A program made the translations under genes and the position numbers. A stretch of 63,637 nt of DNA, taken from assembly GCA_964418095.1 (NCBI GenBank), contig CAYQKM010000004.1, forward strand, positions 1 through 63,637, in the 5' to 3' direction. Below the pieces are notes generated by a model. The model did not search any database, had not been told where the DNA came from, and was given only the letters and a program-made list of their open reading frames with translations. Source of the DNA: Candidatus Woesearchaeota archaeon (GTDB lineage Archaea; Nanobdellota; Nanobdellia; Pacearchaeales; GW2011-AR1). This document shows positions 44,611 through 63,637 of this stretch, piece by piece; positions within the stretch are counted from its first letter, which is position 1; every line of letters starts with the position of its first letter.

Positions 44611-44662
44611 ATATACTTTAATTTATCTTAATCTTTTTATACTTAATATTATTTCAAATTTT

Positions 44663-46783: not shown

Positions 46784-46873
46784 CATAAACAGCTGTTTAA
46801 ACACCCGTAAACAGCAACAAACACCCTTCTATTCATATTTATTTTAATTTATTTCTCCGTCGATAAATGCCTC

Positions 46874-46931
46874 AAACAGCCGTTTAAACAGCATAAACAG
46901 CAACAAACACCCCCCAACAGCTTCCAACACT
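46874..46931 (+). repeat. ~60-bp direct repeat, copy 2
   Basis: The sequence is AAACAGCCGTTTAAACAGCATAAACAGCAACAAACACCCCCCAACAGCTTCCAACACT. It lies 150 bp downstream of copy 1. Confidence 0.85.
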
Positions 46932-47003
46932 CCAACACACATCCCACACATTTTAGCATATTCCAACACATATCCAACACATAATTCTAATAAGCACCAA
47001 AAA

Positions 47004-47059
47004 TATTCAATATAACTTACTTAACCTAAGTGCAAATAACTCTTGAAAATAAAAACTCT
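47004..47059 (+). repeat. 56-bp direct repeat, copy A
   Basis: TATTCAATATAACTTACTTAACCTAAGTGCAAATAACTCTTGAAAATAAAAACTCT is repeated at 47532-47587 with 2 mismatches. A 15-bp fragment (TAACCTAAGTGCAAA) also occurs at 47357-47371. Confidence 0.85.
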
Positions 47060-47531
47060 TTTTTTTCACTAAAATAAATTTTTTTTCTACACCTCAACCC
47101 CTCTCATCTAGCAACCCCTTCAAGTATTTCTCAGACAATTTTTTCCAAAAATTTCTCTTTAAGACTCTTTTAAACCCCTGTTTTAAATCACTGCCTTTTC
47201 ATCTCTTTTTTATTTTATTTCCTCCTTTATTTCACATACCCTCTTTTTACTAATTTTAATATCTTGACCAGCCATTTAACACCTCCAAAGATTCAGAACA
47301 TTATCCAACACATAACTCAAGCCCCAATAATCTTTAAAAAAGACAAACAACAAAGGTAACCTAAGTGCAAAAAGCCAGGGAAAAATTAAGATATTGCTTT
47401 GGATTTTTTCAAAAACCAAGCAAATTCCCTCCTTCCACAAACTCCTTTTCAGACTAACTCTATATATCTTGATTCATTATTAAAAAATACCCTCTCTAAA
47501 AACCCCTTTAAATACAAATGAAAACTAAAGG

Positions 47532-47587
47532 TATTCAATATAACTTACTTAACCTAAGTGCAAATAATTCTTAAAAATAAAAACTCT
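47532..47587 (+). repeat. 56-bp direct repeat, copy B
   Basis: The sequence is TATTCAATATAACTTACTTAACCTAAGTGCAAATAATTCTTAAAAATAAAAACTCT. Confidence 0.85.
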
Positions 47588-47854
47588 CTTTTAAAATTTA
47601 AAACCACTTCTATTGCTCCAGATTCAATTAACAAAATAAAGAAAATAAATTAAGAGATTCAGGACAAATCATCAAATTTACTCAAATTACCCAAAAATTA
47701 AAGAAATAATCAAAAAACACCCTAAAACTTCGCACAATATATCTTGTACGAACCTCAAAAATGCACTGTTTTAAGCGATTTTAAGAGGTTTTTTCAATAT
47801 AATAGGTATATTTACTAAGAAAAGTGATTTGTAATTTTTTTGGATTTTTTAGTT

Positions 47855-50800
47855 TCAATATCCATTAATAATATCATATATTTTTTTTCGGTCTTTTTCA
47901 GGAAGCCTTTTATAAATCTTTTTTATATCCTTATAGAGTCTCATTATTGTTTCTCTATCCCACCTGCTTTTAGCTTCTTGATACTCCTCCACTAGCCCAT
48001 AAATATCTTTTTTATCTATCTTAATTAGGACATCATTTATCTCCTTATAAAAATAATTTCTTGTTTTGTAAGGCAAGACAGGATAAATTTCCTTTATTTT
48101 ATAGTATTTTGCTCTTGCCCCCTCAATGTCTTTTTCTTTTAGTGATTTGTTTATTTCTTTAATTAAGTCAATCACTCTTGCCACATTAGGCTCTTTTTTC
48201 CAACCCCTCATTTTGAACTTTTTGAAAACAATTGGGGCAATTGTAAAAAGCACAACCAAAAACATAAATAAGATTACAATATAAATTGTTAAACCACCAG
48301 AAAGCCCCCCAAGCACAAAATATCCTGTAACTCTTGTTTTAATATTAGTTAAGTCATCTTCAAACAACATTGTTTCAGTATCTTCAATGTCTTTTAACTT
48401 TACAGATTCAGATATATAATAAATTATTTCATTGTTTTTAATGTCTTCTTGCTCTATTTCAAACAGATTTCCCTTTCCTTTTCTTTCACTATCTGTAATA
48501 AACACTATATTTTCTTTATTTTTAAAAAGGCTTTCTGGAATAAATTCCAGGATACTTCCACGAGAGTTTTCTCCAATTTTAACTTTCTTTGTAACTAATA
48601 TGAATTTTTGAGTTCCATTAGCATATTCTATCTCAACTTCCATGGCTTCTGAAGAAACAGATATATCATTTTGCATCTTTTTATTTATCTCCACCGATTT
48701 TCTTAAAGAAGCTCCTTTCAAGATCGTGTTTGTAGATGAAAAATACTCTTCAATTATCTGCTTAAAATCCCCACTTATACTGTTTTTAACATATTCGTAG
48801 TCTTTATTTACTTTGACATTTAATGGAATTTTTGTTCTTATAGATTCAAGCTCATTCAAATAATCTTCTGTTTTCTTTTTTCTCAAGCTTTCGCTACCAA
48901 CATACTTATAATTCTCTTGAAAAAAGTTTTGTATATCTAAAAGCCTTTTTTTATAGTATTTAGTTTCTTCTAAAATATTAAGTTTTTCCAAAACCTCTTT
49001 TTCCTTTAAACTATAATTTGAAGTTAGAACCTTATCTGCAAGCTCTTTTAACTTATCTACTTCTTCTTTAGAATCATAATATAAATCAGAGTTATTTGTA
49101 ACATTATTTAAAATAACCTGAAATATTGAAGCATTTAAATACTCGTTAGAGGAGTTATCAAAACACTCTACTTCCCAAAGGTAAATACCCTCTTCAAAAT
49201 CTGTTAGCATAACTACAACATTTTTATTATTTTGAACTGAATCATTGTTCGCTACAGATTTATCTTTAGAAGTTAGAGGAAATACTAAATTAGATTTGTT
49301 CCATGTGCAGTGAGTTAATGACGAGCATCCATTATATATTCTAAGTGAACAGTTTTTAATTTTAACATCATCACTGGCCCTGTATGTGAAATTTATTGAA
49401 TTTACATAAATTATTTGTTTTGAATAGGGTTTTAAGAGGGTAATGTCTGGGGCACTTTTATCTTTATTTGTTTGTCCAGTTACATTTAACTCACTTTGCT
49501 CAATTACATTTAATCCATTTTTTTGAATAATAAAATTCTCCCCCCCCATAATCATATTCAACTTAAGAGTATAATTGCCTTCTTGAGTATATTTTCTTGT
49601 AAATATCTTGTTAAATTGCAATGTGTTAATATCCAAATAAGTAATATTTGAATTTCCATCCCCATAATCTAAAATAACATGGGTTATATTCTTAAAAGGA
49701 GAGGTTATATTAGCAGTAACCTTAACAGAACCATCTTTTTTAATAGATGTTGCATTTAGACTCAGGTTTGCACTTGCAACAGAGAAATTAGTTAGTAGAG
49801 TATAATTTGGAGCAGGCTCATCAAATATTATCTTTAAGGCATAGTTTCCATCTCCCTTTAAGATAGATTCATTCATTATAAAAGATGCAGAGTTTGCATA
49901 ATTTCTACTGTAGATTATATTGTTCTCTCCTTTGATTATTTGAACAGAAAAATTTGAAGGGGCACTTGAATTAATTATTATTGTTTCACTGTTTAGTATT
50001 TTATTTTGGGTTAAATCTAAAAAATATAACTTTCCTTCTTTAAGAGAAGAGTTAAAAGTTTCATTTATTGAAAATGAGCCCAAACTTGCATTTGTCACAG
50101 ACTTATTCGAGGGATCTAAACATACTACCCCCCAATCATAATCTCCATTGGGCAAGTTTAAATTATAACTCTCATTTGAATTGAAAATTTCTTCAAAATT
50201 TTCTCCTATGCCTCCAACTTGAAGATTACAAATAAATTCTTTTGAATAATTCACGCTTATATTAAATAAAATGGGGTTTCTTACATTTCCAATAGGACCA
50301 GAAACATTCAAGAGTAAACTCTCTTCTTCAGAACCCTCTTCTTCAGAATTATTTATATTATTTAATTCTATAACTACCCTAAATATCTGCTCACTTAGGT
50401 GGGGAACAATCCACGAAACTTTCTCAATTAATCCATTGTCGTCTTCATCATAATACTCAACACCATATTCATCGAATAAAGTGATATCTATTCCTTCCTG
50501 ATTTTCCCAATAGATTCTTATATCTTTCTTTTCAGATTCTTGAGTTAAATCAATGTAAATTCGTAATTCTTTTTCAAAATGCTCTTCACTTGAAATAATC
50601 ACCTCTTTTTCAAATTCATTCTTTTTTATATCTTGTATTGGTTTCAAATTTTCACTAAGAAATTTCCAATCTTCTTCAATACAGTTTATAACTTCTACCT
50701 TCTTTTCCCCATTAGGAGAGTGAGAATATAATAAACAGTAATCTGTGCCCAAATTAATTTCTGGATTTTCTTCTTTTTCTTCAGTGTTTTCTGAATCTTT

Positions 50801-51115
50801 TTGGGAATTTTCTTTAGAAATATCTGACAAATTAATATACTCAAATTTTTCATTAGAAAAGCTCTCGTTTTTTGAATCGTCTGATTCAAATTTATCTTCG
50901 GAATCGCCTATCTCAATTTCATTTTCAAGCTCTCCACTATCTTCAGAGTATTCTCCCGTAGGTGGAGAGGCAGGATTATCTTCGACATTCTCTGGATTAT
51001 TACTCACACCATTTGAGTCATCAGGAGGGGAGGAATTTACCTGGGGTGCAATTAAAATTATAAATAAAATTGCTAAGAAAAAGATGAATAATGTGTTTAA
51101 AAATCTCTTATTCAT
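47855..51115 (-). CDS. giant surface protein: signal peptide, acidic linker, Ig/PKD-like repeats, C-terminal TM anchor, 122-aa cytoplasmic tail with duplicated tail motif
   Basis: 1086 aa. The signal peptide is MNKRFLNTLFIFFLAILFIILIAPQVNS. A PKD-like block reads VILDYGDGNSNITY...YTQEGNYTLKL. There are dozens of N-x-S/T sequons. The TM reads GLTIYIVILFMFLVVLFTIAPIVF. The tail (47855-48223) contains ...ARAKYYKIKEIYPVLPYKTRNYFY... and ...MRLYKDIKKIYKRLPEKDRKKIY... Confidence 0.7.
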   Translation of the reverse strand: MNKRFLNTLFIFFLAILFIILIAPQVNSSPPDDSNGVSNNPENVEDNPASPPTGEYSEDSGELENEIEIGDSEDKFESDDSKNESFSNEKFEYINLSDISKENSQKDSENTEEKEENPEINLGTDYCLLYSHSPNGEKKVEVINCIEEDWKFLSENLKPIQDIKKNEFEKEVIISSEEHFEKELRIYIDLTQESEKKDIRIYWENQEGIDITLFDEYGVEYYDEDDNGLIEKVSWIVPHLSEQIFRVVIELNNINNSEEEGSEEESLLLNVSGPIGNVRNPILFNISVNYSKEFICNLQVGGIGENFEEIFNSNESYNLNLPNGDYDWGVVCLDPSNKSVTNASLGSFSINETFNSSLKEGKLYFLDLTQNKILNSETIIINSSAPSNFSVQIIKGENNIIYSRNYANSASFIMNESILKGDGNYALKIIFDEPAPNYTLLTNFSVASANLSLNATSIKKDGSVKVTANITSPFKNITHVILDYGDGNSNITYLDINTLQFNKIFTRKYTQEGNYTLKLNMIMGGENFIIQKNGLNVIEQSELNVTGQTNKDKSAPDITLLKPYSKQIIYVNSINFTYRASDDVKIKNCSLRIYNGCSSLTHCTWNKSNLVFPLTSKDKSVANNDSVQNNKNVVVMLTDFEEGIYLWEVECFDNSSNEYLNASIFQVILNNVTNNSDLYYDSKEEVDKLKELADKVLTSNYSLKEKEVLEKLNILEETKYYKKRLLDIQNFFQENYKYVGSESLRKKKTEDYLNELESIRTKIPLNVKVNKDYEYVKNSISGDFKQIIEEYFSSTNTILKGASLRKSVEINKKMQNDISVSSEAMEVEIEYANGTQKFILVTKKVKIGENSRGSILEFIPESLFKNKENIVFITDSERKGKGNLFEIEQEDIKNNEIIYYISESVKLKDIEDTETMLFEDDLTNIKTRVTGYFVLGGLSGGLTIYIVILFMFLVVLFTIAPIVFKKFKMRGWKKEPNVARVIDLIKEINKSLKEKDIEGARAKYYKIKEIYPVLPYKTRNYFYKEINDVLIKIDKKDIYGLVEEYQEAKSRWDRETIMRLYKDIKKIYKRLPEKDRKKIYDIINGY

Positions 51116-51314
51116 TTTGCTTACCCCGCTTAGATTTACTAACCAAATATCCCTCGTTATACAACCAGAGAGTTATTATCTTTCCAACAACATCTTGCTC
51201 ATTATTTCCAATAACTCCAATCAGTTTTCTTATCGCTTCTTTTTGGTTTAAAGGTATTGTCCCTTTAACTGTAGAGCTTTTATGTTTGGCATCATTTAAG
51301 TCCTTTTTAGGCAT
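51108..51314 (-). CDS. small ribbon-helix-helix (CopG/Arc-like) DNA-binding protein
   Basis: The track ORF extends to 51395, but the plausible ATG is at 51314. MPKKDLNDAKHKSSTVKGTIPLNQKEAIRKLIGVIGNNEQDVVGKIITLWLYNEGYL fits a beta-strand plus two helices. Its stop overlaps the start of the giant gene by 8 nt (ATGAATAA). Confidence 0.5.
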   Translation of the reverse strand: MPKKDLNDAKHKSSTVKGTIPLNQKEAIRKLIGVIGNNEQDVVGKIITLWLYNEGYLVSKSKRGKQNE

Positions 51315-51427
51315 TATATAATAATAATAAAGTACTTTATAAAGGTTTTTATTTTCTTGTGTTTTTTTAAGAAGATTTAAATAAATAGGTTGCAATCTTC
51401 ATATAGGGAGAGGATTAAAAAAAGCAC

Positions 51428-53437
51428 GTGAAAATCTTGTTTTTATCAAAGAGAGAAAATTTTTTATTGTTTTTTTTATTTGTAATTTTAATTTTTTTAA
51501 GATTTACTTCTGCTGAAGTTGGAACTACCTTGGAGATTATTAATGCCCCCCCATATTTAATCAAAGATATACCAGATCAAAGTTGGCCAGAAAATGAGAG
51601 CTTAATTGATGCATTTGATTTAGATGAATATTTTGGAGACCAAGAGGGAACCCCCCTTACATATTATAATTCTTCAGTTTCCGGAATCTATGTTGAAATA
51701 AACCCCATAACCCACACTGTTTCATTTTACCCTGCTCCAGGATTTTCAGGAAAAAGAGAGGTTACATTTTATGCTTCAGATTCAAAATACGATTCTCCAA
51801 GTAATGTTGTAACACTTTCTGTAGGACTAGATAAAGAGCCGCCGAAATGGTTTTTTCCAGGTATAGATAAAGAAGTCATTTATCAAAGCGATCTGGTAAC
51901 ATTCACAACAAATTGGACAGATGATAGAAATCTTAAAGAGTTTATTTTTTCAATAAATCAGGGAGCAGGATGGGAAAATTATTCTTCCACTTTCTTCTCA
52001 GGAAAAGAAAATATTTCATCATCAAAAATACAGATTAGAGCTCCTGCATTTAATATTGTTTATTGGAGATATTATGCATCAGATAGTTCTGGAAACATAA
52101 ACGTTACTGATATACAAAGCTTTACAGTTTCTCTTAAAGAAACTGGTGAAGGGCCTGGAAGCGGGAGTAATAATAAGACTTCAGGGGGATTATCTAACCT
52201 TTTTCAGAATGTAGATGTTTCAAAAGCAAGAAAAATAGAAGATTTCCAAATTAACATCTATGAACTTAGAGTTCAATTAAAGCAAGGAGAATCTAAAACG
52301 AGGTTATTAAAAATAACTAACACTGGACTTGAAGAGATTTTTATTAATCTCTCATCTCCTAAGCTACAAGATTTTGTAGTTTTCAGTTCATCCTCTTTTT
52401 CTCTCCCTTCAGGAAAATCAAAGGAGATTGCTTTAGATTTCCACGCTAAAGACAGAACAATCCCCGGACAATATTTTGGATATATTACTCTTAGCTCTCG
52501 CAATGTAAGTAAGTCCATTCCAACAGTGCTGGATATTCAAGGGATAAATTTAGAATTTGATGTAACTTTAAATATTTCAGAAGAATATAAGATAGTTAAG
52601 CCTGGAAAAGAAATCAAAGTAAACATGACTTTGAAAAATTTAAAAGACCTTAAAGACACAAAAATATCTCTTTACTATGCAATAAAAGATTATTTCGGGA
52701 CAGTTTATAACTTTTCAGAAGAAGATGCAACCCTTTTTTCCACACTTTCTCTGGAGAGAACATTACTTGTTCCAGAGGGAACACCCAAGGGAAAATATTT
52801 AGTCTATGTAAGAGCCTCAGATGATAAAAATATTGCAATAGACTCTGTAGAATTTGAAGTAGGAACAAAATTTAGTTTTTCTTCATTTATAAAAATAGGC
52901 TCAATATCTCTTTTAATTACAATCTTTGCTTTATTTTTAGCTATCTTAATGGTTAAGCGTAGAAAGGATAAAGAAAAAGAAAGAATCTTAGAATTATACA
53001 TTTTATTAAATAAATTAAAATCTTTAATAAAACAAAATAAAGAAGACGAAGCTTTAGATCTTTTCATAAAGATAAAAAAAATGTATCGGGAACCCCTCCC
53101 AAAAGATATATTTGATGATAAAGAAAAATTAAAAAAAGAAATATCTCTTTTATATGACAGTTTTTTAAAAGACAAAAATATATCTGAATTAAATAAAAAT
53201 GTCTCAAAAAATTTAGTTGCTCAACACCCACCTGCAAATAAAAACGAGAAACCTTTCTCAGATAAATCTCTTGAATTTTTACAAGAACAAAGAAAAAAAG
53301 GACTAACAGACTCCCAAATAAAAAAATTTCTTTTAAATAAAGGGTTTTCAGAGGAAGAAGTTGGAAAAATATTTAACTCCTTAAACAATAAATCAAATAT
53401 AAACAACCAGGTTAAAAAAAGAGACAAAAAAATTTAA
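51428..53437 (+). CDS. large surface protein: signal peptide, Ig-like domains, TM anchor, cytoplasmic tail with tail motif and KG[LF][ST]xx[EQ][IV] helical repeats
   Basis: 669 aa. It apparently starts at GTG, has no in-frame ATG in the signal peptide, and has GGGAGAGGA 16 nt upstream. The signal peptide is KILFLSKRENFLLFFLFVILIFLRFTSA. The TM reads ISLLITIFALFLAILMV. The tail (52955-53437) contains EDEALDLFIKIKKMYREPLPKD and KKGLTDSQIKKFLLNKGFSEEEVGKIFNSL. Confidence 0.65.
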   Translation: MKILFLSKRENFLLFFLFVILIFLRFTSAEVGTTLEIINAPPYLIKDIPDQSWPENESLIDAFDLDEYFGDQEGTPLTYYNSSVSGIYVEINPITHTVSFYPAPGFSGKREVTFYASDSKYDSPSNVVTLSVGLDKEPPKWFFPGIDKEVIYQSDLVTFTTNWTDDRNLKEFIFSINQGAGWENYSSTFFSGKENISSSKIQIRAPAFNIVYWRYYASDSSGNINVTDIQSFTVSLKETGEGPGSGSNNKTSGGLSNLFQNVDVSKARKIEDFQINIYELRVQLKQGESKTRLLKITNTGLEEIFINLSSPKLQDFVVFSSSSFSLPSGKSKEIALDFHAKDRTIPGQYFGYITLSSRNVSKSIPTVLDIQGINLEFDVTLNISEEYKIVKPGKEIKVNMTLKNLKDLKDTKISLYYAIKDYFGTVYNFSEEDATLFSTLSLERTLLVPEGTPKGKYLVYVRASDDKNIAIDSVEFEVGTKFSFSSFIKIGSISLLITIFALFLAILMVKRRKDKEKERILELYILLNKLKSLIKQNKEDEALDLFIKIKKMYREPLPKDIFDDKEKLKKEISLLYDSFLKDKNISELNKNVSKNLVAQHPPANKNEKPFSDKSLEFLQEQRKKGLTDSQIKKFLLNKGFSEEEVGKIFNSLNNKSNINNQVKKRDKKI

Positions 53438-53438
53438 A

Positions 53439-55793
53439 ATGAAAATTCTAAAAAAGTACTTTTTTGTTATTTGCATTTTCTCGCTTATGCTGAGTTTTTC
53501 CTTAATTGTGAGCGCTTCAGAGAATTCTGCATTTGGAGATGAAATAAAAAAAGAGTATTATTCTATTTCAAGAGACAAAATTGACAGAGTTGTGGCTCTT
53601 GGAACATTATTCCAGGATTTTATAACTATTGAAAATTTTAACACAAGATCTCTTTTTGTAAGCTTTTCAGTTTCAGGAGCAGCAGCCAACTTTATAGAAT
53701 TTGATTACTCGGGAATAGAGATTCTTCCTGGAGAGAGTTCTTCTTTTTATTTTTACATTAAAGGGGAAGAGGAAGGGTCATATATCGGAGAGTTCTCTTT
53801 ATCTGGAGGGGCCACAGAAAAAATTCCAGTTACAATAAAAATTATTAATTCTGATTTAAACCCAATATTTTTTATAGACACCGAACCTTTTAAGAAAACA
53901 TTTAATTTAAATGAAGATTTGAAATTTAAAATTTATCTTAATAAACTAAAATCTGGACCAGCAGAAAATTTAACAATCTCTTATTATTTAAACAATACTA
54001 AAAACGAATCATTTTTTTTAGGAGAAGAATCATTTAACTTTACAAACTCATTTTACTTAGTTAGAAAATTTAAAATACCTCAAGAAGCGGATAAAGGAGA
54101 TTATATTTTGCAAACAACAGCTACTTATTCAGGAGACTCAATTTTTTCTTTAAGTCGGTTTATAATAAAGAAACCTTTTTTTAAGATTCTCTTATTTGGA
54201 TTTTTACCTCTTTGGGCATTATTTTTAGGATTGGGGACAATTTTGTTATTCTTGCTAATATTCTTTTTAATAAGGAGAAAAATTAAATTATCAAAAAAAT
54301 ACAGAATGGAGCTTGATACAAAAAAGCTTCCTACTCCCAGTAAAGAGGTCTTGGTTTTAGGAAAAATTGCCGAGACTAAAATAAAAGCTTGCTTAGAACC
54401 TGAAAAATTGAAGATACACACAATTGTCGCTGGAGCTACTGGTGGAGGAAAAAGTATTGCTGCTCAAGTAATAGTAGAAGAAGCTCTTCTAAAAAATGTT
54501 GCAGTAATTGTTTTTGATCCAACAGCACAGTGGTCAGGTATGCTTAGAAAATGCGAAGACAAAAAAATGATTTCCTATTACCCTAATTTTGGATTAAAAC
54601 CTACAGATGCAAGGGCTTTCTTTGGGAATATAAGACAGATATCTCATGCCAGAGAAATTATTGATGTGAATAAGTTTATTCAGCCAGGACAAATACAGAT
54701 ATTTGCGTTAAATAAATTAGATCCAAATGATATGGATATTTTTGTTGCGAGTGTTATAAGGCAAATATTTAAGTCTGACCCAAAAGAAACCCCTGATTTA
54801 AAAGTTCTTTTAGTTTTTGATGAGGTTCACAGGTTACTTTCAAAATTTGGAGGTAGCGGAGAAGGATTTTTACAAATAGAAAGAGCATGCAGGGAGTTCA
54901 GAAAATGGGGAATTGGAGTTATGTTGGTCTCTCAGGTATTAAGTGACTTCGTTGGAGAGATAAAAGCAAACATTAACACTGAAATACAAATGAGGACAAG
55001 GGACGAAGGAGATTTAAAAAGAATAAACACGAAATATGGAGAAGAATTTTTGCAATCACTTGTTAAGGCATCAGTAGGGGTGGGAATGTTTGTAAATACT
55101 GCATACAACAAAGGTAGACCGTATTTCATAAACTTTAGACCCATCCTTCACAACACACGAAGACTTTCAGACGAGGAGTTAGAAAAGTACAATAAATATA
55201 ATGATATAATTGATGACTTTGAAAATCAAATAAATCAGCTTGAAACAGAAAAAGTAGACATATTTGATTTGAAGATGGAATTAAAACTGATTAAGGATAA
55301 GCTAATGACAGGAAACTTTTCAGTTGTGGATATTTATATCGAAGGCATAGCACCAAGATTGCAAAAACAATGGGAAAAAATAGGAAAGAAGCCAAAAAAA
55401 GTGGAGAAAAAATTACTAGACGAATCTGAATTAAAAAAATCATTAGAAGAAGCAAAAAAAGCAAGAGAAATTTTTGAAAAAGAAGAACAAAAGAAACAAA
55501 AAAAAGAAGAGAAAAAAACAGAAGCAGAAAATATTGGTACAAAAATACTTAAGCCTTTAACTTTTGATAATGGGATAATGATATCCACACTTAAAGAATT
55601 AAAAGATACTCTTCCAGGCATAGATAAAGAAATATTTTTGCTTCATGTGAATGAAAATAAGAATGATATCTCCAAGTGGGCAGCGCAGGTTTCAGCAGAT
55701 TTATCTAAAAAAATAGCAGCTGAAAGCGAAAAGTCAAAAATTGTTCTGATATTGGATCAATTTTTAAAAGAAGCAAGCACTAAAAAATCTTAA
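53439..55793 (+). CDS. membrane-anchored HerA/FtsK-like P-loop ATPase (DUF87-type) with N-terminal signal peptide and extracellular Ig-like domain
   Basis: 784 aa. The signal peptide is MKILKKYFFVICIFSLMLSFSLIVSA. The ectodomain is about 215 aa (SFSVSGAAANFIEFDYSGIEILPGESSSFYFYIKGEEEGSYIGEFSL). The TM spans about aa 246-278 (nt about 54174-54272). The HerA-type core has Walker A (HTIVAGATGGGKSIAAQVI...VIVFDPTAQW), Walker B (LLVFDEVHRLL) and REFRKWGIGVMLVSQVLSDF...INTEIQMRTRD. A Lys/Glu coiled coil follows, then a C-terminal LTFDNGIMISTLKELKDTLPGIDKEIFLLHVNENKNDISKWAAQV domain. Confidence 0.75.
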   Translation: MKILKKYFFVICIFSLMLSFSLIVSASENSAFGDEIKKEYYSISRDKIDRVVALGTLFQDFITIENFNTRSLFVSFSVSGAAANFIEFDYSGIEILPGESSSFYFYIKGEEEGSYIGEFSLSGGATEKIPVTIKIINSDLNPIFFIDTEPFKKTFNLNEDLKFKIYLNKLKSGPAENLTISYYLNNTKNESFFLGEESFNFTNSFYLVRKFKIPQEADKGDYILQTTATYSGDSIFSLSRFIIKKPFFKILLFGFLPLWALFLGLGTILLFLLIFFLIRRKIKLSKKYRMELDTKKLPTPSKEVLVLGKIAETKIKACLEPEKLKIHTIVAGATGGGKSIAAQVIVEEALLKNVAVIVFDPTAQWSGMLRKCEDKKMISYYPNFGLKPTDARAFFGNIRQISHAREIIDVNKFIQPGQIQIFALNKLDPNDMDIFVASVIRQIFKSDPKETPDLKVLLVFDEVHRLLSKFGGSGEGFLQIERACREFRKWGIGVMLVSQVLSDFVGEIKANINTEIQMRTRDEGDLKRINTKYGEEFLQSLVKASVGVGMFVNTAYNKGRPYFINFRPILHNTRRLSDEELEKYNKYNDIIDDFENQINQLETEKVDIFDLKMELKLIKDKLMTGNFSVVDIYIEGIAPRLQKQWEKIGKKPKKVEKKLLDESELKKSLEEAKKAREIFEKEEQKKQKKEEKKTEAENIGTKILKPLTFDNGIMISTLKELKDTLPGIDKEIFLLHVNENKNDISKWAAQVSADLSKKIAAESEKSKIVLILDQFLKEASTKKS

Positions 55794-57664: not shown

Positions 57665-57668
57665 TTTT

Positions 57669-59693
57669 TCATCCTCTTTCTTTTACACTTGCTATAACTA
57701 TTTTTTTTTCTTTATTATTAAGTGTTTTGTATCTTTCTTTTGCATTATTATATAGATTTAAAGCCTCTTCCTCTTTCCCCTCATTTAAAAGATGCTTAGA
57801 TTTTTTTATGTCTTCTATGATTGTTATAACATGTTTTAAGTAAGGCTCTCTTTTTATTTTTAAAAAATAGATTACAAGTATTAAAGCAAAGAACCCTAAA
57901 ATAATTATGCCCCCCGGCCCTTTACCCCCTAATTCAAATATAAAGTTCCCAGTTATTTTTGATGCCCCTTCATCATTTCTTATTTTTATTGGGACAATTA
58001 ATATTTCCTCTGCAGAAGATGCTGTAATCTCTTTGCTGAAATAATACACTATTTTTTTGGTGCCTGAATTGAATGATAAAACTGGGTCGTCCTTTACAAT
58101 TGTATAATCTAAGTTCATCATTTTAATTCCAGAAGCTTTTTCTGAAATCTCTTTTGGAACAACCAGGATAAATTTTAATTCATCATCTTTTTCTAAGCTG
58201 GAACTAATCTCTTCTTTTAACAAACTAATAGTTTTCTTTGTACCATCAAGGTAAAGTATATTCAAAATAGAAATTTTTCCAGTTATAATAATCTTTTTCT
58301 CGCTTATTATCTTTAATATTTCATTCAGCTCTTTTTCATTATTAGATTCTGAATTAGAGTAATATTCTAGAAGAGCTATTTGCAGGTTCTTTTCGTTTAA
58401 TTCCCTGCTTATTTCTTTTTCTTCTTTAATAATAATATCCTCTGGTATTTTTTTCTTAACTATATTTATTCTGAGATTCATAGAGTCCAGCTTTTTGTTT
58501 AATTCTTCTAAACTTAAATCCTGAGATTTATAACTTTCTACATCTCTTTTAATAGAGTTTAATTCAGCTAAAGAATCTTCTATTTCTTTATCTAATTTAA
58601 TTTCACTAAATATTTCCCTTTTTCTATCTCCCCCATACCCAATAAGATAAGATATCTCCTCAACATTTGCTATTATTGTATTTATTTCAGATATTTGGTT
58701 TTCTACTTTTCCTATTAAGCTGGGATTAAGTCCTTTTACTTGAGATGAGTTTGTAATTAAAGCGGTAGCATAAACTTCTTTTGAAAGGTCTCCAATGTTT
58801 CCCGCATCATCTATTCCTGCAACTCTATAATAATATGTTTTCCCTTTTTCAACATCATTATCATAAAAGTAATCCTTTGAAGATGATTTGTAAAAATCAG
58901 TATATTCTATTCTCGGATTTTCAGATCTATACACATAAAATTCATTAAGACTTTCTTCAGAAAACCAACTTAATTTTATTTGTCCTTGATATCCAACAGC
59001 ATCAACTATATTTATTGTAGAGGGTTTTAAACTATCTACAATAAAAGAATTGTCCCCTATAATTTTAGTTCCTTCCTCCCCTGTCAAATCTTTTGCTTTA
59101 AACCTAAATGAGCACACACTCTCTCCAACAGATGCAGGGATAATTAAATTTCCTTCCCATACACTTCCCTTTCCTGTTAAAGAAATCGGTTTATACACTA
59201 TCTCATCAAAGCTATATTCTAATACTGGAGTTTCTAAACTTGTCTTGGAAGTTATTAAGCTTATTTTATATTTCCCTTCTTTGAGCGGGGGTTCTTTAGA
59301 TAATTTTATTTTAGCATAAATAGGAATACTTATCCCAAATCCAACTTCTAATTCAGAATTAGAATCTTCTCCGCATCGAATATAGTATTTGTGAAACCCT
59401 TCTTCTAAGTTTTCTATATACACCTCATGGATTAACCCATACTCTCCATCAAAATTTTTTAGAAGTGAACTTTCTGTTCTATACTCACACCTTGTCTCTT
59501 CTAAGGTGTTTATCCTCAACACAACAGAGTCTGTTTTGTATATCTTATTAGATATAATAGAACCTCCTTCGGAAGTATATTCTGCAGTTATTATTGAAGC
59601 AGACGCAGCAGAAACCTCCACAATAATTAAAGATGTAACTATTAATCCTAGAATCACCAACATTAAATTTTTATTTTTTCTATTTAATATCAT
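57669..59693 (-). CDS. large surface protein with FN3-like domain, coiled-coil stalk, TM anchor and cytoplasmic tail motif
   Basis: 674 aa. The signal peptide is MILNRKNKNLMLVILGLIVTSLIIVEVSAAS. The FN3-like block reads IKLSWFSEESLNEFYVYRSEN...KGKTYYYRVAGIDDAGNIG. The TM reads GIIILGFFALILVIYFL. The tail (57669-57860) contains EEEALNLYNNAKERYKTLNNKEKK. Confidence 0.65.
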   Translation of the reverse strand: MILNRKNKNLMLVILGLIVTSLIIVEVSAASASIITAEYTSEGGSIISNKIYKTDSVVLRINTLEETRCEYRTESSLLKNFDGEYGLIHEVYIENLEEGFHKYYIRCGEDSNSELEVGFGISIPIYAKIKLSKEPPLKEGKYKISLITSKTSLETPVLEYSFDEIVYKPISLTGKGSVWEGNLIIPASVGESVCSFRFKAKDLTGEEGTKIIGDNSFIVDSLKPSTINIVDAVGYQGQIKLSWFSEESLNEFYVYRSENPRIEYTDFYKSSSKDYFYDNDVEKGKTYYYRVAGIDDAGNIGDLSKEVYATALITNSSQVKGLNPSLIGKVENQISEINTIIANVEEISYLIGYGGDRKREIFSEIKLDKEIEDSLAELNSIKRDVESYKSQDLSLEELNKKLDSMNLRINIVKKKIPEDIIIKEEKEISRELNEKNLQIALLEYYSNSESNNEKELNEILKIISEKKIIITGKISILNILYLDGTKKTISLLKEEISSSLEKDDELKFILVVPKEISEKASGIKMMNLDYTIVKDDPVLSFNSGTKKIVYYFSKEITASSAEEILIVPIKIRNDEGASKITGNFIFELGGKGPGGIIILGFFALILVIYFLKIKREPYLKHVITIIEDIKKSKHLLNEGKEEEALNLYNNAKERYKTLNNKEKKIVIASVKERG

Positions 59694-60879
59694 GCTTTTT
59701 ACCTCTGGATTTTTCTCTTTTTATTTTGTATGCAAGATATGCGATTAAGATAATCAAGATAATATAAATCAAATAGATTTTTATTTTGTCCCATTTAATA
59801 CCAGTACCCTCTACATTAATTACTGCGCTTTTCTCAAAGGTTCTCTTACTATCATAAAATACTGCCCCGTTAACAATATATTTTCCCTCACTTTTTGGAG
59901 TAAAATAAAACTTAAAAGTTTCTTTTCCCCCAACATTAACTAAACTTCCTTCACTTTCAAGTATCTGCATTATTTTACTTCCAAGAGTTATTGCTCCTTT
60001 AAACCTAGCATTCACTGTTTTCTCCCCGACATTTTCAAATGTTGCTTCAATCAAAACAGTGTCTCCTACTTTTATTCTTGGAGGAGCGATAATGCTTAGG
60101 AGAGTTCCTTGAGATTTTAATGCGCCTTCTTCTAAAATATCAAATGTTAAAGTCTCAGATGCATAACACTCTACAGAAGTTACTTCTGCCCAATACTGTC
60201 CAATTTCAAGCCCAGAGGAACTTACAGGAATAATTATCTCTTTTTCTGTAGTTGGGATAATCATTTCTTCTGAAAATTCAACTTGTTTTACAATACCTAT
60301 CCTATCTCTATCCCAAATATCAATTTTAACAGTAGGATACAACCTAATGTTTCCCTGATTAAGTACATTTAATTTGAATAAAATATCTTCTCCTTTTTCA
60401 ACAGATTCAACTTTAAATCCCCCTGCTCTACATAAAGAATATTCCACATCTGTTACTCCCACTTCTAAATATAAATCCAATGCAGCATTTACTATTCCAG
60501 TAGCTTGCCCCTCTGCTCCTTTGAGTTTATTTTCTGTTGTAACTCTTATGAATCCAGAATAATTTCCATTAGGCATATCTAAGGGGGGTTGCACAGATAT
60601 TTTCAAATAATATGGACTTGCCTTGGATATTTCAAATTCTTTTTTTTCAAATGAAATCCACTCTGCAATATCTCCGCGGACATCTAAAATTACATTTATT
60701 GGTTCTTCTGTATCTACTGTTATTGTTACTGTTCTCTCAGAATACCCTCCCCTTAATACATCTTTAAAATAAATATTTGCAGGACTTACTCCTATATTTG
60801 CAGAAGAAATAAATGTCATAAACAAAGGTAAAACTAGTAAAATCATTCCAAATTTTAATTTATTCAACTGTTTATTCAT
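59680..60879 (-). CDS. surface protein with tandem Ig-like (PapD/NEW3-like) domains and C-terminal TM anchor
   Basis: The track ORF extends to 60897. The ATG at 60879 follows the upstream stop directly and gives the signal peptide MNKQLNKLKFGMILLVLPLFMTFISSANIG. Ig-like blocks read VSPANIYFKDVLRGGYSERTVTI...IAEWISFEKKEFEI...NGNYSGFIRV. The C-terminal TM reads IYLIYIILIILIAYLAY. Confidence 0.6.
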   Translation of the reverse strand: MNKQLNKLKFGMILLVLPLFMTFISSANIGVSPANIYFKDVLRGGYSERTVTITVDTEEPINVILDVRGDIAEWISFEKKEFEISKASPYYLKISVQPPLDMPNGNYSGFIRVTTENKLKGAEGQATGIVNAALDLYLEVGVTDVEYSLCRAGGFKVESVEKGEDILFKLNVLNQGNIRLYPTVKIDIWDRDRIGIVKQVEFSEEMIIPTTEKEIIIPVSSSGLEIGQYWAEVTSVECYASETLTFDILEEGALKSQGTLLSIIAPPRIKVGDTVLIEATFENVGEKTVNARFKGAITLGSKIMQILESEGSLVNVGGKETFKFYFTPKSEGKYIVNGAVFYDSKRTFEKSAVINVEGTGIKWDKIKIYLIYIILIILIAYLAYKIKREKSRGKKHDIK

Positions 60880-60880
60880 T

Positions 60881-62080
60881 TTAATTCTCCGGTGCATTTA
60901 CAGCACCAAAAACAATATTACCTTGACAGCTTCCGGATATATAATTCGGAACACGTATTCTCCAATAGGTTCCTTTCACAGCCTCATCTTGATTTTCACT
61001 CTTTCTATAATCTAAATTGAATGTTTCTATTTTCGGAGATGAGGTTAGATTAATATATTTTGATTCAAATTCCTCTAAGCTTATTTCTCCTCCATTTGAT
61101 TTTGTAAGATTAAATCGTTCGTACGTTACGGGGATGTTATTTGTCTCTTCTCCACTGACACAAGTCATAGCGTATCCATCCTCTTCTTGAGAACCATATC
61201 CACTTAACGACAAATTAATTTTAATATTTCCATAATTTGTAATATTTATTCTACTCTCTTTAGTAATCTCTTTGCCTTCTTCAATCTCAAAATGAATTAT
61301 AGAATCAACACCTAATGCTAAAAGAGGGTTTATAAAAGAAGTGTCACCTTTTTTAGAAACTATTGAAAAATTATCCTGAACAGAGATGGTACAATTCCAA
61401 AACTCAGAATTAGCATAATACCAGACATAGAATGCGCAGGTTATTTTCGCTTCATTTTGGGTTCCATAAGAATAGTTTATTTCACAGCTATCATTTGTAT
61501 AATGGAGATTATTATCATTAAAGTCTTCGAAATATGAATTAACACTATCAAAGAATACAGCACTTGCATTTGTCAAAGAAAATTCTCCATCATATTCTGT
61601 AGCGATTGCAGTACATTTAATCTCTTTAGTCGCGGCAGGGATTAAATCTATTTCCTTCTCCGGAAAAGGGAGATCATCTTCAATATGTATGCTCGTAATA
61701 TTTGGGGGAGAATTAAGAGTTATATTTTCCACAATATCATACCCATATCCACCAACAAGAACGCTTTTTTCTCCAGAAATATAATTGTTCCCATTATTAA
61801 CCACTTTCAATGTAAGTGTATTTGTAACATTGCATCCGCTTTTTAACATCTCACAATCAATCATATATATCCCACTTGCTTTGGAATTTCCTTCAGGCCC
61901 AATTATATCACTTACATTTTCTATTGCACCAATTTCAGTGTTCCAAAGAACTATAGAAAGTCCATTAGGACTAGTGCCATCTTTAGCATTTTCAACATAT
62001 CCTACAATATAGTGAGCAGCAGAGCACATTTGAATTACAAATATTATCCCAATTATACTTAGCAAAAACATTTTTTTCAT
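60881..62080 (-). CDS. secreted protein with conserved N-terminal HYI-G-VENA domain (paralog 2)
   Basis: 399 aa. The signal peptide is MKKMFLLSIIGIIFVIQMCSAA, followed by HYIVGYVENAKDGTSPNGLSIVLWN...SDIIGPEGNS...YMIDCEMLKSGC...LTLKVVNNGNNYISGE...ITLNSPP. It is colinear with the first ~125 aa of 55790..57664. Confidence 0.65.
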   Translation of the reverse strand: MKKMFLLSIIGIIFVIQMCSAAHYIVGYVENAKDGTSPNGLSIVLWNTEIGAIENVSDIIGPEGNSKASGIYMIDCEMLKSGCNVTNTLTLKVVNNGNNYISGEKSVLVGGYGYDIVENITLNSPPNITSIHIEDDLPFPEKEIDLIPAATKEIKCTAIATEYDGEFSLTNASAVFFDSVNSYFEDFNDNNLHYTNDSCEINYSYGTQNEAKITCAFYVWYYANSEFWNCTISVQDNFSIVSKKGDTSFINPLLALGVDSIIHFEIEEGKEITKESRINITNYGNIKINLSLSGYGSQEEDGYAMTCVSGEETNNIPVTYERFNLTKSNGGEISLEEFESKYINLTSSPKIETFNLDYRKSENQDEAVKGTYWRIRVPNYISGSCQGNIVFGAVNAPEN

Positions 62081-62406
62081 ATTAAATCTAAAATGACCTC
62101 CCTTTTTGAGACTACTTCATATGTTCTGTTTGGAAGCATTACAAAATTTTCTCCTATGCCTCCAAATACATTTACATATCCTTTTTCTTCTCCATTTTCA
62201 GTGCAACTTATAGTAGATATCTCAGGAAATAAATTAACTAAATCTTTAACATAGATTGGATTAAAATCAGCACTTGTATTTAGAAAAGTTTTCCCTTCAT
62301 TAAGTACGATTCCCTCCCCTAAATCAATTTCTTCAGCAAAAAGAATATCTACTGTACCCAAGAAGATGCCAATGAAAAATACTGCAAACAAAATTTTCTT
62401 ATTCAT
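62077..62406 (-). CDS. small secreted protein
   Basis: The track start is TTG (62424) and the ATG is at 62406. The signal peptide is MNKKILFAVFFIGIFLGTVDILFA. It overlaps the downstream gene by 4 nt (ATGA). Confidence 0.5.
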   Translation of the reverse strand: MNKKILFAVFFIGIFLGTVDILFAEEIDLGEGIVLNEGKTFLNTSADFNPIYVKDLVNLFPEISTISCTENGEEKGYVNVFGGIGENFVMLPNRTYEVVSKREVILDLI

Positions 62407-62563
62407 TTTTGTCCTCCGTAACAATTATTTTTTTGTTAATAGGATCAAATTTCAAAATTATTTTTGAGCCTTCTTTTAGATTTAGAGTATCTACAATTGC
62501 CTTGGGTATTTTTATCCTATGACCTTTTTGTATTTTATTATCTTTAAATGTAATCTCTACCAT
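62399..62563 (-). CDS. AbrB/SpoVT-like (swapped-hairpin barrel) small DNA-binding protein
   Basis: It is below the track cut-off. Hand translation gives MVEITFKDNKIQKGHRIKIPKAIVDTLNLKEGSKIILKFDPINKKIIVTEDKNE. The R-I-x-I-P-K-x-I...L-x-L-x-x-G pattern is AbrB-like. Its stop overlaps the next gene's start by 8 nt (ATGAATAA). Confidence 0.55.
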   Translation of the reverse strand: MVEITFKDNKIQKGHRIKIPKAIVDTLNLKEGSKIILKFDPINKKIIVTEDKNE

Positions 62564-62704
62564 ATACTTTTAAAAGGGTATATAAATTCCTTACTTAACC
62601 TCTTTTGATACTAATACGATACTTTTAAAAGTATTTAAATCTTATCTTTATGAAGGGATTTACATTATAACAATATATAAAAATATTAAACGAGGCGTAA
62701 TAGA

Positions 62705-63637
62705 ATGAAAAAGGGGCTAATTAGAGTAGGAGCGATAGGATTTTTACTTTTAATAATATCTGGGATTGTCTTTTTTTCAGTTTTCTCTTCAGCGTATTCT
62801 GATAAAGAGAATTCTCAAAAAGAGAGAGTTCAATTTTCTTTTGAAGAGAATCAAACATTTGTTCTTGATTCATTTGTTTCATTTAATTTTGAAAATCTTG
62901 GAGATTATAAGCTTTTTATTACTTCTCCCAATGGAGAAAGAACATCTCATCTTTCATCAAATAATTTCTTTTTATTTCATGTATTAGAAGAAGGAGAATA
63001 TTCATTAATAGTTGACAGAGGGAATAAAAGAAACTCTTATCATTTCTTTGTTACATCTAAAAATCATGGGAAACAAGTAAATAAAGAAAAAAATTGTAAA
63101 CCTGGAAAGTCAGGTAAAAAATGTAATCCATATAATCCAAACGAACCAGACAATTCAACTGAACTTAAAGAACCAGAAGACACTGAGCAAGAAATTCCAA
63201 TAGTAAATCCAGAAGATCCTGTTCAGGAAAAAGCAGAAATAAATAAGCCTGTAGAATGGACCAAAACAATTTCAGAAGAAAATTTAACCAACCTAATAGA
63301 AATTCCCGCTGTGATTAACTTAACATTAAAAGACGAAACAGGAGAAGCAATTAATTATACATTAGTAAATATTGAGGGTAAAAACTACCTTAACCTAACA
63401 GAATCTCTCCAAGGAAATATTTCTGGAGAAGTCAAGATAGAATATATTACAGAGGCTCCAAAAGTAGAGGAAACAATAATTTCCGAAACAATTAAAGAAG
63501 TTGTAATTTCTTCATCAAAAGATCTTAACTACAAAGATGTGCTTTCTTATACATACTTGCCAAGAGAAATATCTTCAAAATCTTTAATCAAGATTTATTG
63601 GAAAGAAAATAATACTTATCTTGACTTTAATGCTTCA
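62705..63637 (+). CDS. secreted/anchored surface protein (N-terminal 311 codons; continues beyond window end)
   Basis: It is absent from the track because it has no stop inside the window. Hand translation from the ATG at 62705 gives MKKGLIRVGAIGFLLLIISGIVFFSVFSSAYSDKENSQKERVQFSFEENQTF...KNCKPGKSGKKCNPYNPNEP...NLTLKDETGEAINYTLVNIEGKNYLNLTES.... The frame is open to base 63637. It is divergent from the AbrB-led operon. Confidence 0.6.
   Translation, partial: MKKGLIRVGAIGFLLLIISGIVFFSVFSSAYSDKENSQKERVQFSFEENQTFVLDSFVSFNFENLGDYKLFITSPNGERTSHLSSNNFFLFHVLEEGEYSLIVDRGNKRNSYHFFVTSKNHGKQVNKEKNCKPGKSGKKCNPYNPNEPDNSTELKEPEDTEQEIPIVNPEDPVQEKAEINKPVEWTKTISEENLTNLIEIPAVINLTLKDETGEAINYTLVNIEGKNYLNLTESLQGNISGEVKIEYITEAPKVEETIISETIKEVVISSSKDLNYKDVLSYTYLPREISSKSLIKIYWKENNTYLDFNAS

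Follow-up and report, generated by a model that had tools for sequence, protein, structure and literature searches.

A conserved gene island around a membrane-embedded HerA-clade ATPase as a candidate envelope system of Woesearchaeota- and Pacearchaeota-type archaea

Introduction

What does a HerA-clade ATPase do when it is itself an integral membrane protein and is encoded among genes for giant surface proteins? The question is raised by an island of genes that extends from position 47855 to the end of a 63,637-nt stretch of DNA from Candidatus Woesearchaeota archaeon (assembly GCA_964418095.1, contig CAYQKM010000004.1, positions 1 to 63,637, forward strand), which we call the window, meaning the whole stretch that was analyzed. 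The window is archaeal chromosomal DNA of ~30% GC. An initial annotation of the island, made from the sequence alone, had proposed that its genes form an undescribed system around a transmembrane (TM) HerA-type ATPase. Much of archaeal diversity belongs to the DPANN archaea, which are thought to live off other cells. The proteins of their cell-cell bridges or attachment structures are currently unknown (PMC11420986), and this is stated explicitly for the proteins of the attachment organelle of the Nanobdellota (Johnson et al. 2024).

On the basis of gene content, predicted topology, homology, conserved gene order, and natural fusions, the island genes very probably constitute one functional envelope system. 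Less certain, with a chance just short of even in our estimate, is that the region opens a conserved chromosomal supercluster, of which it would be the first half, and that this supercluster encodes an envelope-spanning motor complex of Woesearchaeota- and Pacearchaeota-type Nanoarchaeota. A full-text literature search, which took in DPANN genomics, archaeal "dark matter," and Nanobdellota cryo-electron tomography papers and few subscription journals, found no description of such a system, in agreement with its initial designation as undescribed, and public annotations of the homologs read only "DUF87 domain-containing" or "hypothetical."

Organization of the island

Rederivation of the open reading frames (ORFs), overlaps, and gaps from the sequence reproduced the initially described organization in four units (Table 1), with one correction: the last gene is divergent and encodes at least 311 aa, as proposed, and starts at 62705 rather than 62703. 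Unit i comprises the genes for a 68-aa protein and for the 1086-aa protein g1086. In unit ii, g669 is followed after a gap of 1 nt by the ATPase gene. Unit iii runs from the gene for a 54-aa protein through g109, g399a, g399b, and g674 to g624, with overlaps or gaps of 8, 4, 1, 14, and 4 nt at its junctions, and unit iv consists of the truncated g311. Units ii and iii converge, and their stop codons overlap as TTAA at 55790 to 55793. Hydropathy analysis found a hydrophobic N-terminal segment in each large island protein, consistent with the signal-like N termini noted at the outset, and a single C-terminal TM segment in the same four proteins for which one had been described, namely, g1086, g669, g674, and g399b. 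The number of hydrophobic segments does not exceed two in any island protein.

A HerA-clade ATPase with an ectodomain

The central component is a 784-aa protein whose HerA likeness, suggested initially, is borne out by matches of residues 306 to 599 to the Pfam families DUF87 (42.5 bits; cutoff, 23.2) and HerA_C (34 bits; cutoff, 22). The Walker A sequence GATGGGKS, the DE of the Walker B motif, and several arginines are invariant in 22 homologs. In its AlphaFold2 (AF2) model (AF2 models here are of monomers only; mean predicted local distance difference test [pLDDT], 80), an N-terminal hydrophobic helix is followed by β-sandwich domains at residues 41 to 136 and 144 to 244, a TM helix, and the RecA-like core. 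Foldseek searches with the core retrieved as top matches HerA from S. solfataricus (4d2i) and defense HerAs, and a PDB sequence search with the ATPase returned HerAs only, at ~1e-8; the ectodomain matched RbmA/ASH-type immunoglobulin (Ig) pairs and paired Ig/fibronectin type III (FnIII)/ASH-type domains. No Pfam family covers the C-terminal parts of the ATPase or the cytoplasmic tails of its neighbors. For the C-terminal module, BLASTP (6e-8) gave a match to a DUF5752-like module in a neighbor family of relatives (f29), and in one of the gene arrangements described below, such a module is encoded by a separate gene downstream of the ATPase gene.

HerA, the partner of NurA in a complex for DNA end resection (PDB 4d2i and 9x1l), is the closest solved fold and sequence to the ATPase core. 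However, the ATPase has no HAS β-barrel and possesses instead the TM helix and the ectodomain; the AF2 model places no more than two short strands in the interval from the TM helix to Walker A (residue 332). Its scores against the HerA equivalogs of NCBIfam are 31 bits versus a cutoff of 800 (NF040937) and 28 bits versus 970 (NF040819), and no NurA gene was recovered among the island proteins by Pfam and NCBIfam. Every profile and fold search placed it in the HerA clade rather than the FtsK clade: it scores 15.1 bits against FtsK_SpoIIIE (cutoff, 24) and has neither the 4-TM domain nor the gamma domain of FtsK. Because the HAS barrel and NurA are lacking and the thresholds for FtsK, TrwB, VirB4, and TraD are unmet, the ATPase is, on sequence grounds, a distinct branch of the HerA clade.

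Modules and motifs shared with the anchored surface proteins

Profile-profile comparison with hhalign relates the ATPase ectodomain (residues 37 to 247) to residues 269 to 482 of g669 (probability, 99.3%; E value, 6.5e-21) and to g399b (92%; 5.6e-7), in support of the earlier suggestion that it is of the same Ig-like type as domains of its neighbors; hhalign found no homology to g674, g624, or g1086. This relationship is visible only at the profile-profile level. An all-versus-all BLASTP search of the island proteins missed it and returned only two other matches, an N-terminal domain of ~135 aa common to g624 and g399a (44% identical; 1.4e-28) and the TM and tail regions of g669 and g674 (31% identical).

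The protein g669 begins with Ig/cadherin-like domains and continues with the membrane-proximal two-Ig module homologous to the ATPase ectodomain (nt 52232 to 52873), a TM segment at about residues 488 to 510, and a 160-aa cytoplasmic tail. In the AF2 model of g1086 (pLDDT, 75), a signal-like N terminus precedes an acidic disordered segment (residues 18 to 124), about six β-sandwich domains (126 to 667), a helical bundle (683 to 762), an α/β domain (766 to 918), a TM helix (940 to 972), and a five-helix cytoplasmic tail (973 to 1086). Foldseek searches with g1086 retrieved only generic Ig-string proteins at TM-scores of ~0.1, including the Haloferax volcanii surface-layer (S-layer) protein 7ptp. 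The protein g674 consists of β-sandwich/FnIII-like domains, a long helical region, a TM segment at about residues 595 to 613, and a 61-aa tail. The ectodomain of g399b, related to that of the ATPase, is followed after its TM segment by a short, basic tail.

As proposed initially, three of the anchored proteins, g1086, g669, and g674, share a cytoplasmic motif, [DE]EA..L[YF]..[IA]K..Y..LP.K, located ~50 residues past the TM segment. It occurs twice in g1086 (Table 1) and once each in g669 (nt 53051 to 53101) and g674 (nt 57717 to 57764). The motif is specific: its regular expression matched 51 proteins among 882 ORFs of 77 loci, and all but two of these (49/51) belong to the g1086, g669, and g674 families.

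The dense N-x-S/T sequons ascribed to the island proteins at the outset proved to be confined to a subset of them. Sequons are 2- to 2.5-fold enriched in g1086, g669, g624, g399a, and g311, the observed count being reached in 0 to 8 of 500 shuffles; g1086 alone has 33 versus 14.8 expected. The shuffle test found no enrichment in the ATPase ectodomain, and g674 and g399b carry 0.2 to 0.3 sequons per 100 aa, like cytoplasmic proteins, versus 2.3 to 3.6 in their operon neighbors. The proteins g674 and g399b may be shielded, membrane-proximal, or unglycosylated components. Among the unanchored proteins, g624 contains a CARDB domain at residues 334 to 428 (Pfam, above cutoff), and the g311 family has a median length of ~650 aa.

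Conservation of the ATPase and of its neighborhood

Homologs of the ATPase with 52 to 82% full-length identity are abundant in metagenome-assembled genomes of Woesearchaeota, Pacearchaeota, and Nanoarchaeia, and we confirmed 483 ATPase loci (one genome per species) in Woesearchaeota- and Pacearchaeota-type Nanoarchaeota. An architecture check of the 76 best loci covered 71 complete ATPase copies of three paralog types. All 71 have a hydrophobic N terminus, an ectodomain of ~230, 570, or 650 aa, a TM segment, and Walker A after a further 53 to 66 residues, which speaks against a misfused gene model, a doubt that the initial annotation had itself raised. The motor core is 65 to 85% identical both between and within the paralog groups, and the partner proteins are 30 to 56% identical; this contrast fits a motor with a universal substrate that is coupled to fast-evolving surface parts.

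Neither are the genes scattered in relatives. The entire island is collinear in nine of them, and the block of g1086, the small 68-aa gene, g669, and the ATPase gene is syntenic down to 54% ATPase identity. Within the loci collected around ATPase genes, 39 of the 45 members of the g1086 family lie within two genes of the ATPase, and g669 is directly upstream of it in 35 of 36 members; the 68-aa gene (51 to 91% identity) is directly upstream of g1086 in 29 loci, and g674 and g1086 match the same ORFs in distant loci. Reverse look-up from two g1086 homologs of ~31% identity recovered the block in both instances, with the small gene, a divergent gene for a protein of 666 to 699 aa, and a DUF87 ATPase of 791 to 856 aa in the neighborhood.

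Paralogous clusters and giant fusions

Clustering of the ORFs across loci revealed three recurrent arrangements. In the first, that of the window, g1086 and the small gene diverge from g669 and an ATPase gene of ~790 codons. In the second, the families f7 and f8 diverge from a longer ATPase (1120 to 1300 aa), which is followed in the same direction by f19 or f24, f5, f3, the ArsR-type regulator f13, another f3, the 9-TM protein f16, f25, and a g311-like gene. In the third, a small gene, a g1086-like gene, an ATPase of ~1300 aa, f22 (DUF5752), and f5 follow one another on the same strand. Genomes carry two or three of these ATPase paralogs, each with its own set of partners.

The island was initially described as 16 kb or more in length and as running beyond the window end; in close relatives it goes on for >20 kb past that end, to a second, longer ATPase paralog. 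Synteny places the second arrangement ~22 kb past the window end in the clade to which the window belongs (L006 with L044 and L008 with L056). The genes of unit iii are co-directional with and upstream of this long paralog in four loci (L038, L043, L053, and L055). In distant genomes, g624 is likewise paired with the AbrB-like gene upstream of the long paralog, and in eight genomes that are more distant, these two genes are located a few kilobases away from the short ATPase. A tblastn search of the window detected none of the partner families of the second cluster (f3, f5, f6, f7, f8, f12, f13, f16, f17, and others), and the second half of the system is therefore placed outside it.

The long paralog (~1120 to 1300 aa; e.g., L044:8609-11998, also in L036, L042, L051, and L056) has a 650-aa ectodomain with CarboxypepD_reg-type domains. 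Its partners include the cytoplasmic coiled-coil proteins f5 and f8, the small Cys-rich f7, several copies of the secreted f3, the regulator f13, and the polytopic f16; other genomes have a SpoIIM-like 7-TM protein (f12).

When 1.84 billion cluster representatives were searched exhaustively, 389 matched at E values of ≤1e-30. Among the best 150 of these, one in four exceeds 2500 aa, and the longest has 6253 aa. These giants have ectodomains of up to ~5500 aa, followed by the two-Ig module, the TM segment, and the ATPase at the C terminus; the two-Ig module directly precedes the TM segment in 121 of 150 family representatives. The named giants are from Woesearchaeota or Nanoarchaeota and include P0221 (6253 aa), P0256 (5743 aa), and P0206 (4862 aa; L077:10001-24589), among others. 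The gene for the 4862-aa giant stands alone among housekeeping genes, and behind it comes only a conserved gene for a 297-aa coiled-coil protein. Several giants start with a cytoplasmic extension of 50 to 70 aa bearing the pattern K.Y..R.G..YGPYYY before the first TM segment, and both of their termini would therefore be cytoplasmic.

These observations bear on whether the island might be a chance juxtaposition of ordinary adhesin genes and an unrelated or misfused ATPase. The generic nature of Ig-like domains is all that speaks for such a coincidence, which we find scarcely credible in the face of synteny in both directions, an architecture kept in every complete copy, a two-Ig module homologous in the ATPase and g669 and recognizable in g399b, covalent giant fusions, and a tail motif and a promoter box (see below) common to parts of the island.

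Comparison with known ring motors

CedD is a membrane-anchored HerA-clade ATPase for DNA import in the Sulfolobales (PMC11868833). It is the best curated-family match of the window's ATPase (NCBIfam NF053655; 5.4e-11; 41.9 bits versus an equivalog cutoff of 600). CedB and CedD share with the ATPase its archaeal HerA-clade affiliation and an N-terminal TM tether, and they work alongside membrane partners when cells make contact, as the ATPase might. They differ in having a cytoplasmic VirB4-like N-terminal domain and no ectodomain, whereas the window's ATPase has two Ig-like ectodomains, ~50 residues between the TM segment and Walker A, and no cytoplasmic N-terminal domain. Pfam and hydropathy revealed neither a CedA-type polytopic channel gene nor a CedA1 pilin gene in the island.

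A second point of comparison is the type IV coupling proteins (VirD4/TrwB), in which an N-terminus-in TM helix, an extracytoplasmic loop, and a second TM helix lead to a cytoplasmic motor of the FtsK/HerA superfamily, hexameric in VirD4/TrwB. The ATPase would have the same topology if its first helix is retained. It has two hydrophobic segments, with a candidate VSA/SE cleavage site after the first, and the cytoplasmic extension before the first TM segment of the giants argues that this helix is kept, as far as topology can be predicted from these proteins. However, its match to TrwB_AAD_bind (15.8 bits; cutoff, 20.5) is restricted to the P-loop region, SXT_TraD scores 19 bits versus 366, the loop is a folded ectodomain of 230 to 5500 aa rather than a few residues, and the all-α domain is lacking; no relaxase, VirB4, or other type IV secretion system gene was found in the island with Pfam and NCBIfam. 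FtsK/SpoIIIE and Streptomyces TraB belong to the same superfamily and are membrane-anchored ring motors that pump DNA across or at membranes.

The EccC/EssC proteins of type VII secretion systems are membrane-embedded FtsK-like ATPases that recognize short helical client signals, which offers a conceptual parallel to the tail motif. They differ from the window's system, which lacks all of these features, in their three tandem ATPase domains, their FHA or DUF domains, and their soluble WXG100 clients. As stated initially, scans with Pfam, NCBIfam, PHROGs, and PADLOC detected no pilin, secretin, sortase, or known secretion marker in the island.

The same scans bear on the idea that the island is an antivirus or mobile-element module, either HerA-based defense (Sir2-HerA, DUF4297-HerA, or MADS) or the remnant of a conjugative or viral DNA pump. 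PADLOC gave partial matches of the ATPase to HerA and mad8 (best, 9e-17), PHROGs gave matches to phrog_7035 (unknown function; 5e-15) and a terminase family (7e-9), and the two small genes resemble antitoxin-like DNA-binding genes. Still, no Sir2, nuclease, DUF4297, integrase, relaxase, or capsid gene turned up in the four scans, many species keep the same chromosomal position and gene order, and the partners are all extracellular proteins, so that this origin appears very improbable. Each of its two forms was considered and rejected: a defense system, as the PADLOC matches were partial, with no effector, and no other island protein matched any defense model, and a mobile or viral origin, as there was no match in 50,697 phage records and DUF87 matches of 25% identity lay only on haloarchaeal or enterobacterial plasmids.

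A possible envelope-spanning motor

We propose the following working model for the island. Its engine would be the HerA-clade ring ATPase, itself an integral membrane protein with the motor positioned ~50 residues below the membrane. The ATPase may hexamerize under the membrane, in which case the membrane part would consist of its 6 to 12 TM helices together with those of the partners, and the Ig stalks would make up an external collar or fiber. Because g669 has the same membrane-proximal two-Ig module and TM segment, it probably packs beside the ATPase protomers. The tail motif of g1086, g669, and g674 is a likely handle for the motor or for its C-terminal extension, and the unanchored g624, g399a, g109, and g311 may build the outer part. 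Hydrolysis of ATP would then drive a polymer through the ring and the membrane or work mechanically on the tails of the partners.

By analogy with the characterized membrane-anchored motors of this superfamily, all of them included (FtsK/SpoIIIE, TraB, VirD4/TrwB, and CedB/CedD), polymer threading would be the most likely activity and DNA the likeliest polymer. It is possible, if somewhat short of probable, that the system is a polymer translocon; that it moves DNA in particular seems, taken as a whole, rather unlikely. More doubtful than translocation as such is the wider proposal of a new class of trans-envelope machine in Woesearchaeota- and Pacearchaeota-type Nanoarchaeota, in which a HerA-type ring motor, bearing extracellular fibers of 5000 aa in the extreme case, would be the membrane-spanning, surface-exposed core and would form, together with the partners that have the tail motif, a contact organelle by which these ultrasmall archaea take up DNA or nucleotides or exchange macromolecules with other cells. 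Host attachment or transfer across cells, proposed initially for a putative episymbiont, would be compatible with what we observe.

Several points weigh against the working model. The loci were collected around ATPase genes, and the forward adjacency counts are biased in consequence, so that the two reverse look-ups alone are unbiased. The island within the window has no polytopic channel protein; the SpoIIM-like 7-TM and the 9-TM families are confined to the extended cluster that relatives carry. Pfam, NCBIfam, PHROGs, and PADLOC identified no nuclease, relaxase, pilin, or DNA-binding substrate-handling gene in the island. Finally, the cluster occurs throughout the lineage and is embedded among housekeeping genes close to a probable replication origin, a distribution and setting no less suited to a basic function in the envelope than to a host-directed role.

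Such a basic function could be the biogenesis or anchoring of the surface layer. The anchored multi-Ig proteins would then belong to the S-layer-type coat of the cell itself, as SlaB-like anchors beneath an unanchored canopy, and the ATPase would organize, insert, turn over, or tension them via their tails, with no polymer translocated and no host-directed role. Like S-layer anchors of the SlaB type, g1086 and g674 combine a signal peptide, β-sandwich domains, a helical stalk, and a C-terminal TM segment, and the heavy sequon load of g1086 resembles that of multi-Ig S-layer glycoproteins such as H. volcanii csg (PDB 7ptp), strong sequon enrichment being typical of archaeal S-layer glycoproteins. 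The near-universal presence of the system in its lineage, its neighborhood of PolD, Orc1, and the probable origin, the H. volcanii protein among the Foldseek matches, and the lack of channel or substrate-handling genes in the island agree with this explanation. Against it, the likeness to S-layer anchors is architectural only, with no sequence-family match, and the Foldseek TM-scores are low and generic to Ig strings. To our knowledge, no S-layer needs a dedicated cytoplasmic ring ATPase, and we know of no S-layer proteins with conserved cytoplasmic tails of 60 to 160 aa that carry a common motif and are linked to an ATPase. HerA/FtsK-type rings characteristically thread polymers, and two or three ATPase paralogs with separate partner sets, together with the giant fusions, are hard to fit to simple coat anchoring. 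We consider a role in S-layer biogenesis, the main rival to the motor model, rather unlikely on the whole; if true, it would represent the first ATP-driven S-layer organizer.

Quite apart from its function, the protein has an unusual architecture, in which a P-loop ring ATPase is joined in one chain to Ig-like ectodomains that can reach thousands of residues, and this widens the known repertoire of FtsK/HerA motors. The gene set is lineage-wide and highly conserved and offers a defined engine, partners, a putative docking motif, and a common box, each of which is testable. Should the envelope-spanning motor prove to be a conduit for DNA or protein, it would add a new type to the transport systems of prokaryotes; should it belong to a contact organelle, it would supply the molecular identity of DPANN cell-cell bridges or attachment structures. 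The gene set is a concrete candidate for the way in which contact with other cells is managed in these archaea.

Small regulator-like genes and a conserved promoter box

Two small genes lead units i and iii. The 54-aa protein of unit iii, initially called AbrB-like, matches the Pfam family MazE_antitoxin (PF04014) at 26.3 bits (cutoff, 24.7) and falls slightly under the cutoff of TIGR01439 (24.7 bits versus 28.3; 1.4e-5); its gene is 51 to 96% identical in 19 loci and always adjoins g109 or g624. The 68-aa protein of unit i had been called a ribbon-helix-helix (RHH) protein, an assignment that we could not substantiate. Neither RHH nor any other profile matched it in Pfam or NCBIfam, even at E values of ≤1 or in lenient subsequence scans, and a β-α-α pattern is readable by eye only. 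In hhalign, it does not match the family of small proteins that leads the third ATPase type (f32), and that family itself has no RHH match.

The divergent region between units i and ii contains the box TACTTTATAAAG at 51333 to 51344, 19 nt upstream of the 68-aa gene, together with an A/T-rich TATA-like stretch and a Shine-Dalgarno-like GGAGAGG site before the GTG start of g669. The region between units iii and iv contains two copies of the box TACTTTTAAAAG, at 62565 to 62576 and, in palindromic form, at 62620 to 62633. The box TACTTTWWAAAG has three sites in the entire window, all of them in these two divergent regions (0.46 expected; count reached in 0 of 100 shuffles). Upstream of the 68-aa gene, the box is kept at the same position in close relatives (L001 to L011), and upstream of the AbrB-like gene it is kept in close relatives and in eight distant ones. 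This conservation supports units that would be co-regulated and regulator led. The box is a candidate operator or promoter element that the 68-aa and AbrB-like proteins might bind, and the two small putative DNA-binding proteins and the common box may co-regulate the units.

Table 1. Features of the island and neighboring replication genes in the window
Feature	Position (nt)	Residues	Strand	Remarks
PolD DP2	36413-39877			Housekeeping gene
PolD DP1	39949-41667			Housekeeping gene
Orc1/Cdc6	41682-42896			Housekeeping gene
g1086, 1086-aa type I anchored surface glycoprotein (predicted)	47855-51115		-	ORF, hydropathy, AF2
Tail motif of g1086, copy 2	47900-47947	1057-1072	-	
Tail motif of g1086, copy 1	48071-48121	999-1015	-	GARAKYYKIKEIYPVLP
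68-aa small basic protein, fold unconfirmed	51108-51314		-	Overlaps g1086 start by 8 nt
Divergent putative promoter region, units i/ii	51315-51427			
g669, 669-aa type I anchored glycoprotein (predicted)	51428-53437		+	GTG start
ATPase, 784 aa, membrane-embedded, HerA clade	53439-55793		+	Pfam, AF2, Foldseek
ATPase hydrophobic helix	53445-53510	3-24	+	AF2
ATPase two Ig-like ectodomains	53547-54179	37-247	+	AF2, hhalign
ATPase TM segment	54210-54293	258-285	+	AF2 (hydropathy: 260-278)
ATPase RecA-like core	54351-55136	305-566	+	
ATPase Walker A	54432-54455		+	GATGGGKS
ATPase Walker B	54807-54830		+	LLVFDEVH
ATPase long helices		578-693	+	AF2
ATPase DUF5752-like C-terminal module	55557-55679	707-747	+	
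g624, 624-aa secreted unanchored glycoprotein (predicted)	55790-57664		-	Stop overlaps ATPase stop
g674, 674-aa anchored protein	57669-59693		-	
g399b, 399-aa anchored protein	59680-60879		-	405 aa if start at 60897
g399a, 399-aa secreted glycoprotein (predicted)	60881-62080		-	
g109, 109-aa small secreted protein (predicted)	62077-62406		-	Conserved in 14 loci
54-aa AbrB/SpoVT-type DNA-binding protein	62399-62563		-	Leads unit iii
Divergent putative promoter region, units iii/iv	62564-62704			
g311, secreted glycoprotein, 5' part (≥311 aa)	62705-63637		+	Cut by window end

Genomic setting and neighboring features

The remainder of the window carries housekeeping genes, including those for FtsY, SRP54, RadA, and RPA in addition to the PolD subunits and Orc1/Cdc6 (Table 1). 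Directly beside Orc1/Cdc6 and near PolD lies an AT-rich stretch (42900 to 43800; 24% GC) with repeats and a palindrome, which is probably a replication origin, and the surface-protein island begins only ~4 kb from it. A PolD/TctA neighborhood also adjoins the cluster in a distant relative (L078). In this setting, the membrane HerA might be the segregation or division DNA pump of the lineage, an analog of FtsK with the surface proteins as loosely associated neighbors. A membrane-anchored motor of the right superfamily with a very highly conserved core, located a few kilobases from Orc1/Cdc6, PolD, and the probable origin and keeping the PolD neighborhood in a distant relative, would suit that role. 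Such a pump is nevertheless improbable: the ATPase has conserved extracellular domains of 230 to ~5500 aa, its ectodomain is homologous to those of its neighbors, genomes have several paralogs with distinct surface partners for each, FtsK_SpoIIIE remains under threshold, and no gamma/KOPS-type domain is present.

No RNA gene was found in or beside the island by Rfam and ARAGORN. Elsewhere in the window, the two tools differ in their tRNA calls: ARAGORN reports only a tRNA-Ser(GGA) at 2406 to 2487 (minus strand), and the sole tRNA that Rfam calls at its gathering threshold is a 92-nt match at 6666 to 6757 (minus strand), which possibly contains an intron. A T2SSE-type (type IV filament) ATPase is encoded at 22536 to 24824 beside a 726-aa predicted membrane protein at 20247 to 22427, both on the minus strand, which suggests that the organism has a separate pilus- or archaellum-type system, located ~25 kb away from the island.

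The interval from the probable origin to the island contains two winged-helix/helix-turn-helix genes (44567 to 45637, plus strand, and 45940 to 46563, minus strand) of the families f21 and f20, which occupy the same place in relatives. The pair carries internal short tandem repeats (ACAGACAG... at 45185 to 45227 and VQTG repeats in the 207-aa protein). From the second of these genes to the stop codon of g1086, 1.3 kb (46564 to 47854) contain no ORF of ≥60 aa. Within them, an 82-nt direct repeat is present at 46983 to 47064 and 47511 to 47592 (87% identical), and the 15-mer TAACCTAAGTGCAAA occurs in three exact copies at 47022, 47357, and 47550 on the plus strand (0.24 expected; three copies in 0 of 100 shuffles). 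One to four copies of the 15-mer are found at the syntenic spot in nine relatives. In this element, 18 nucleotides are invariant, the flanks are not conserved, and synonymous variation is missing, so that it is constrained at the nucleotide level and is perhaps an operator or a small RNA.

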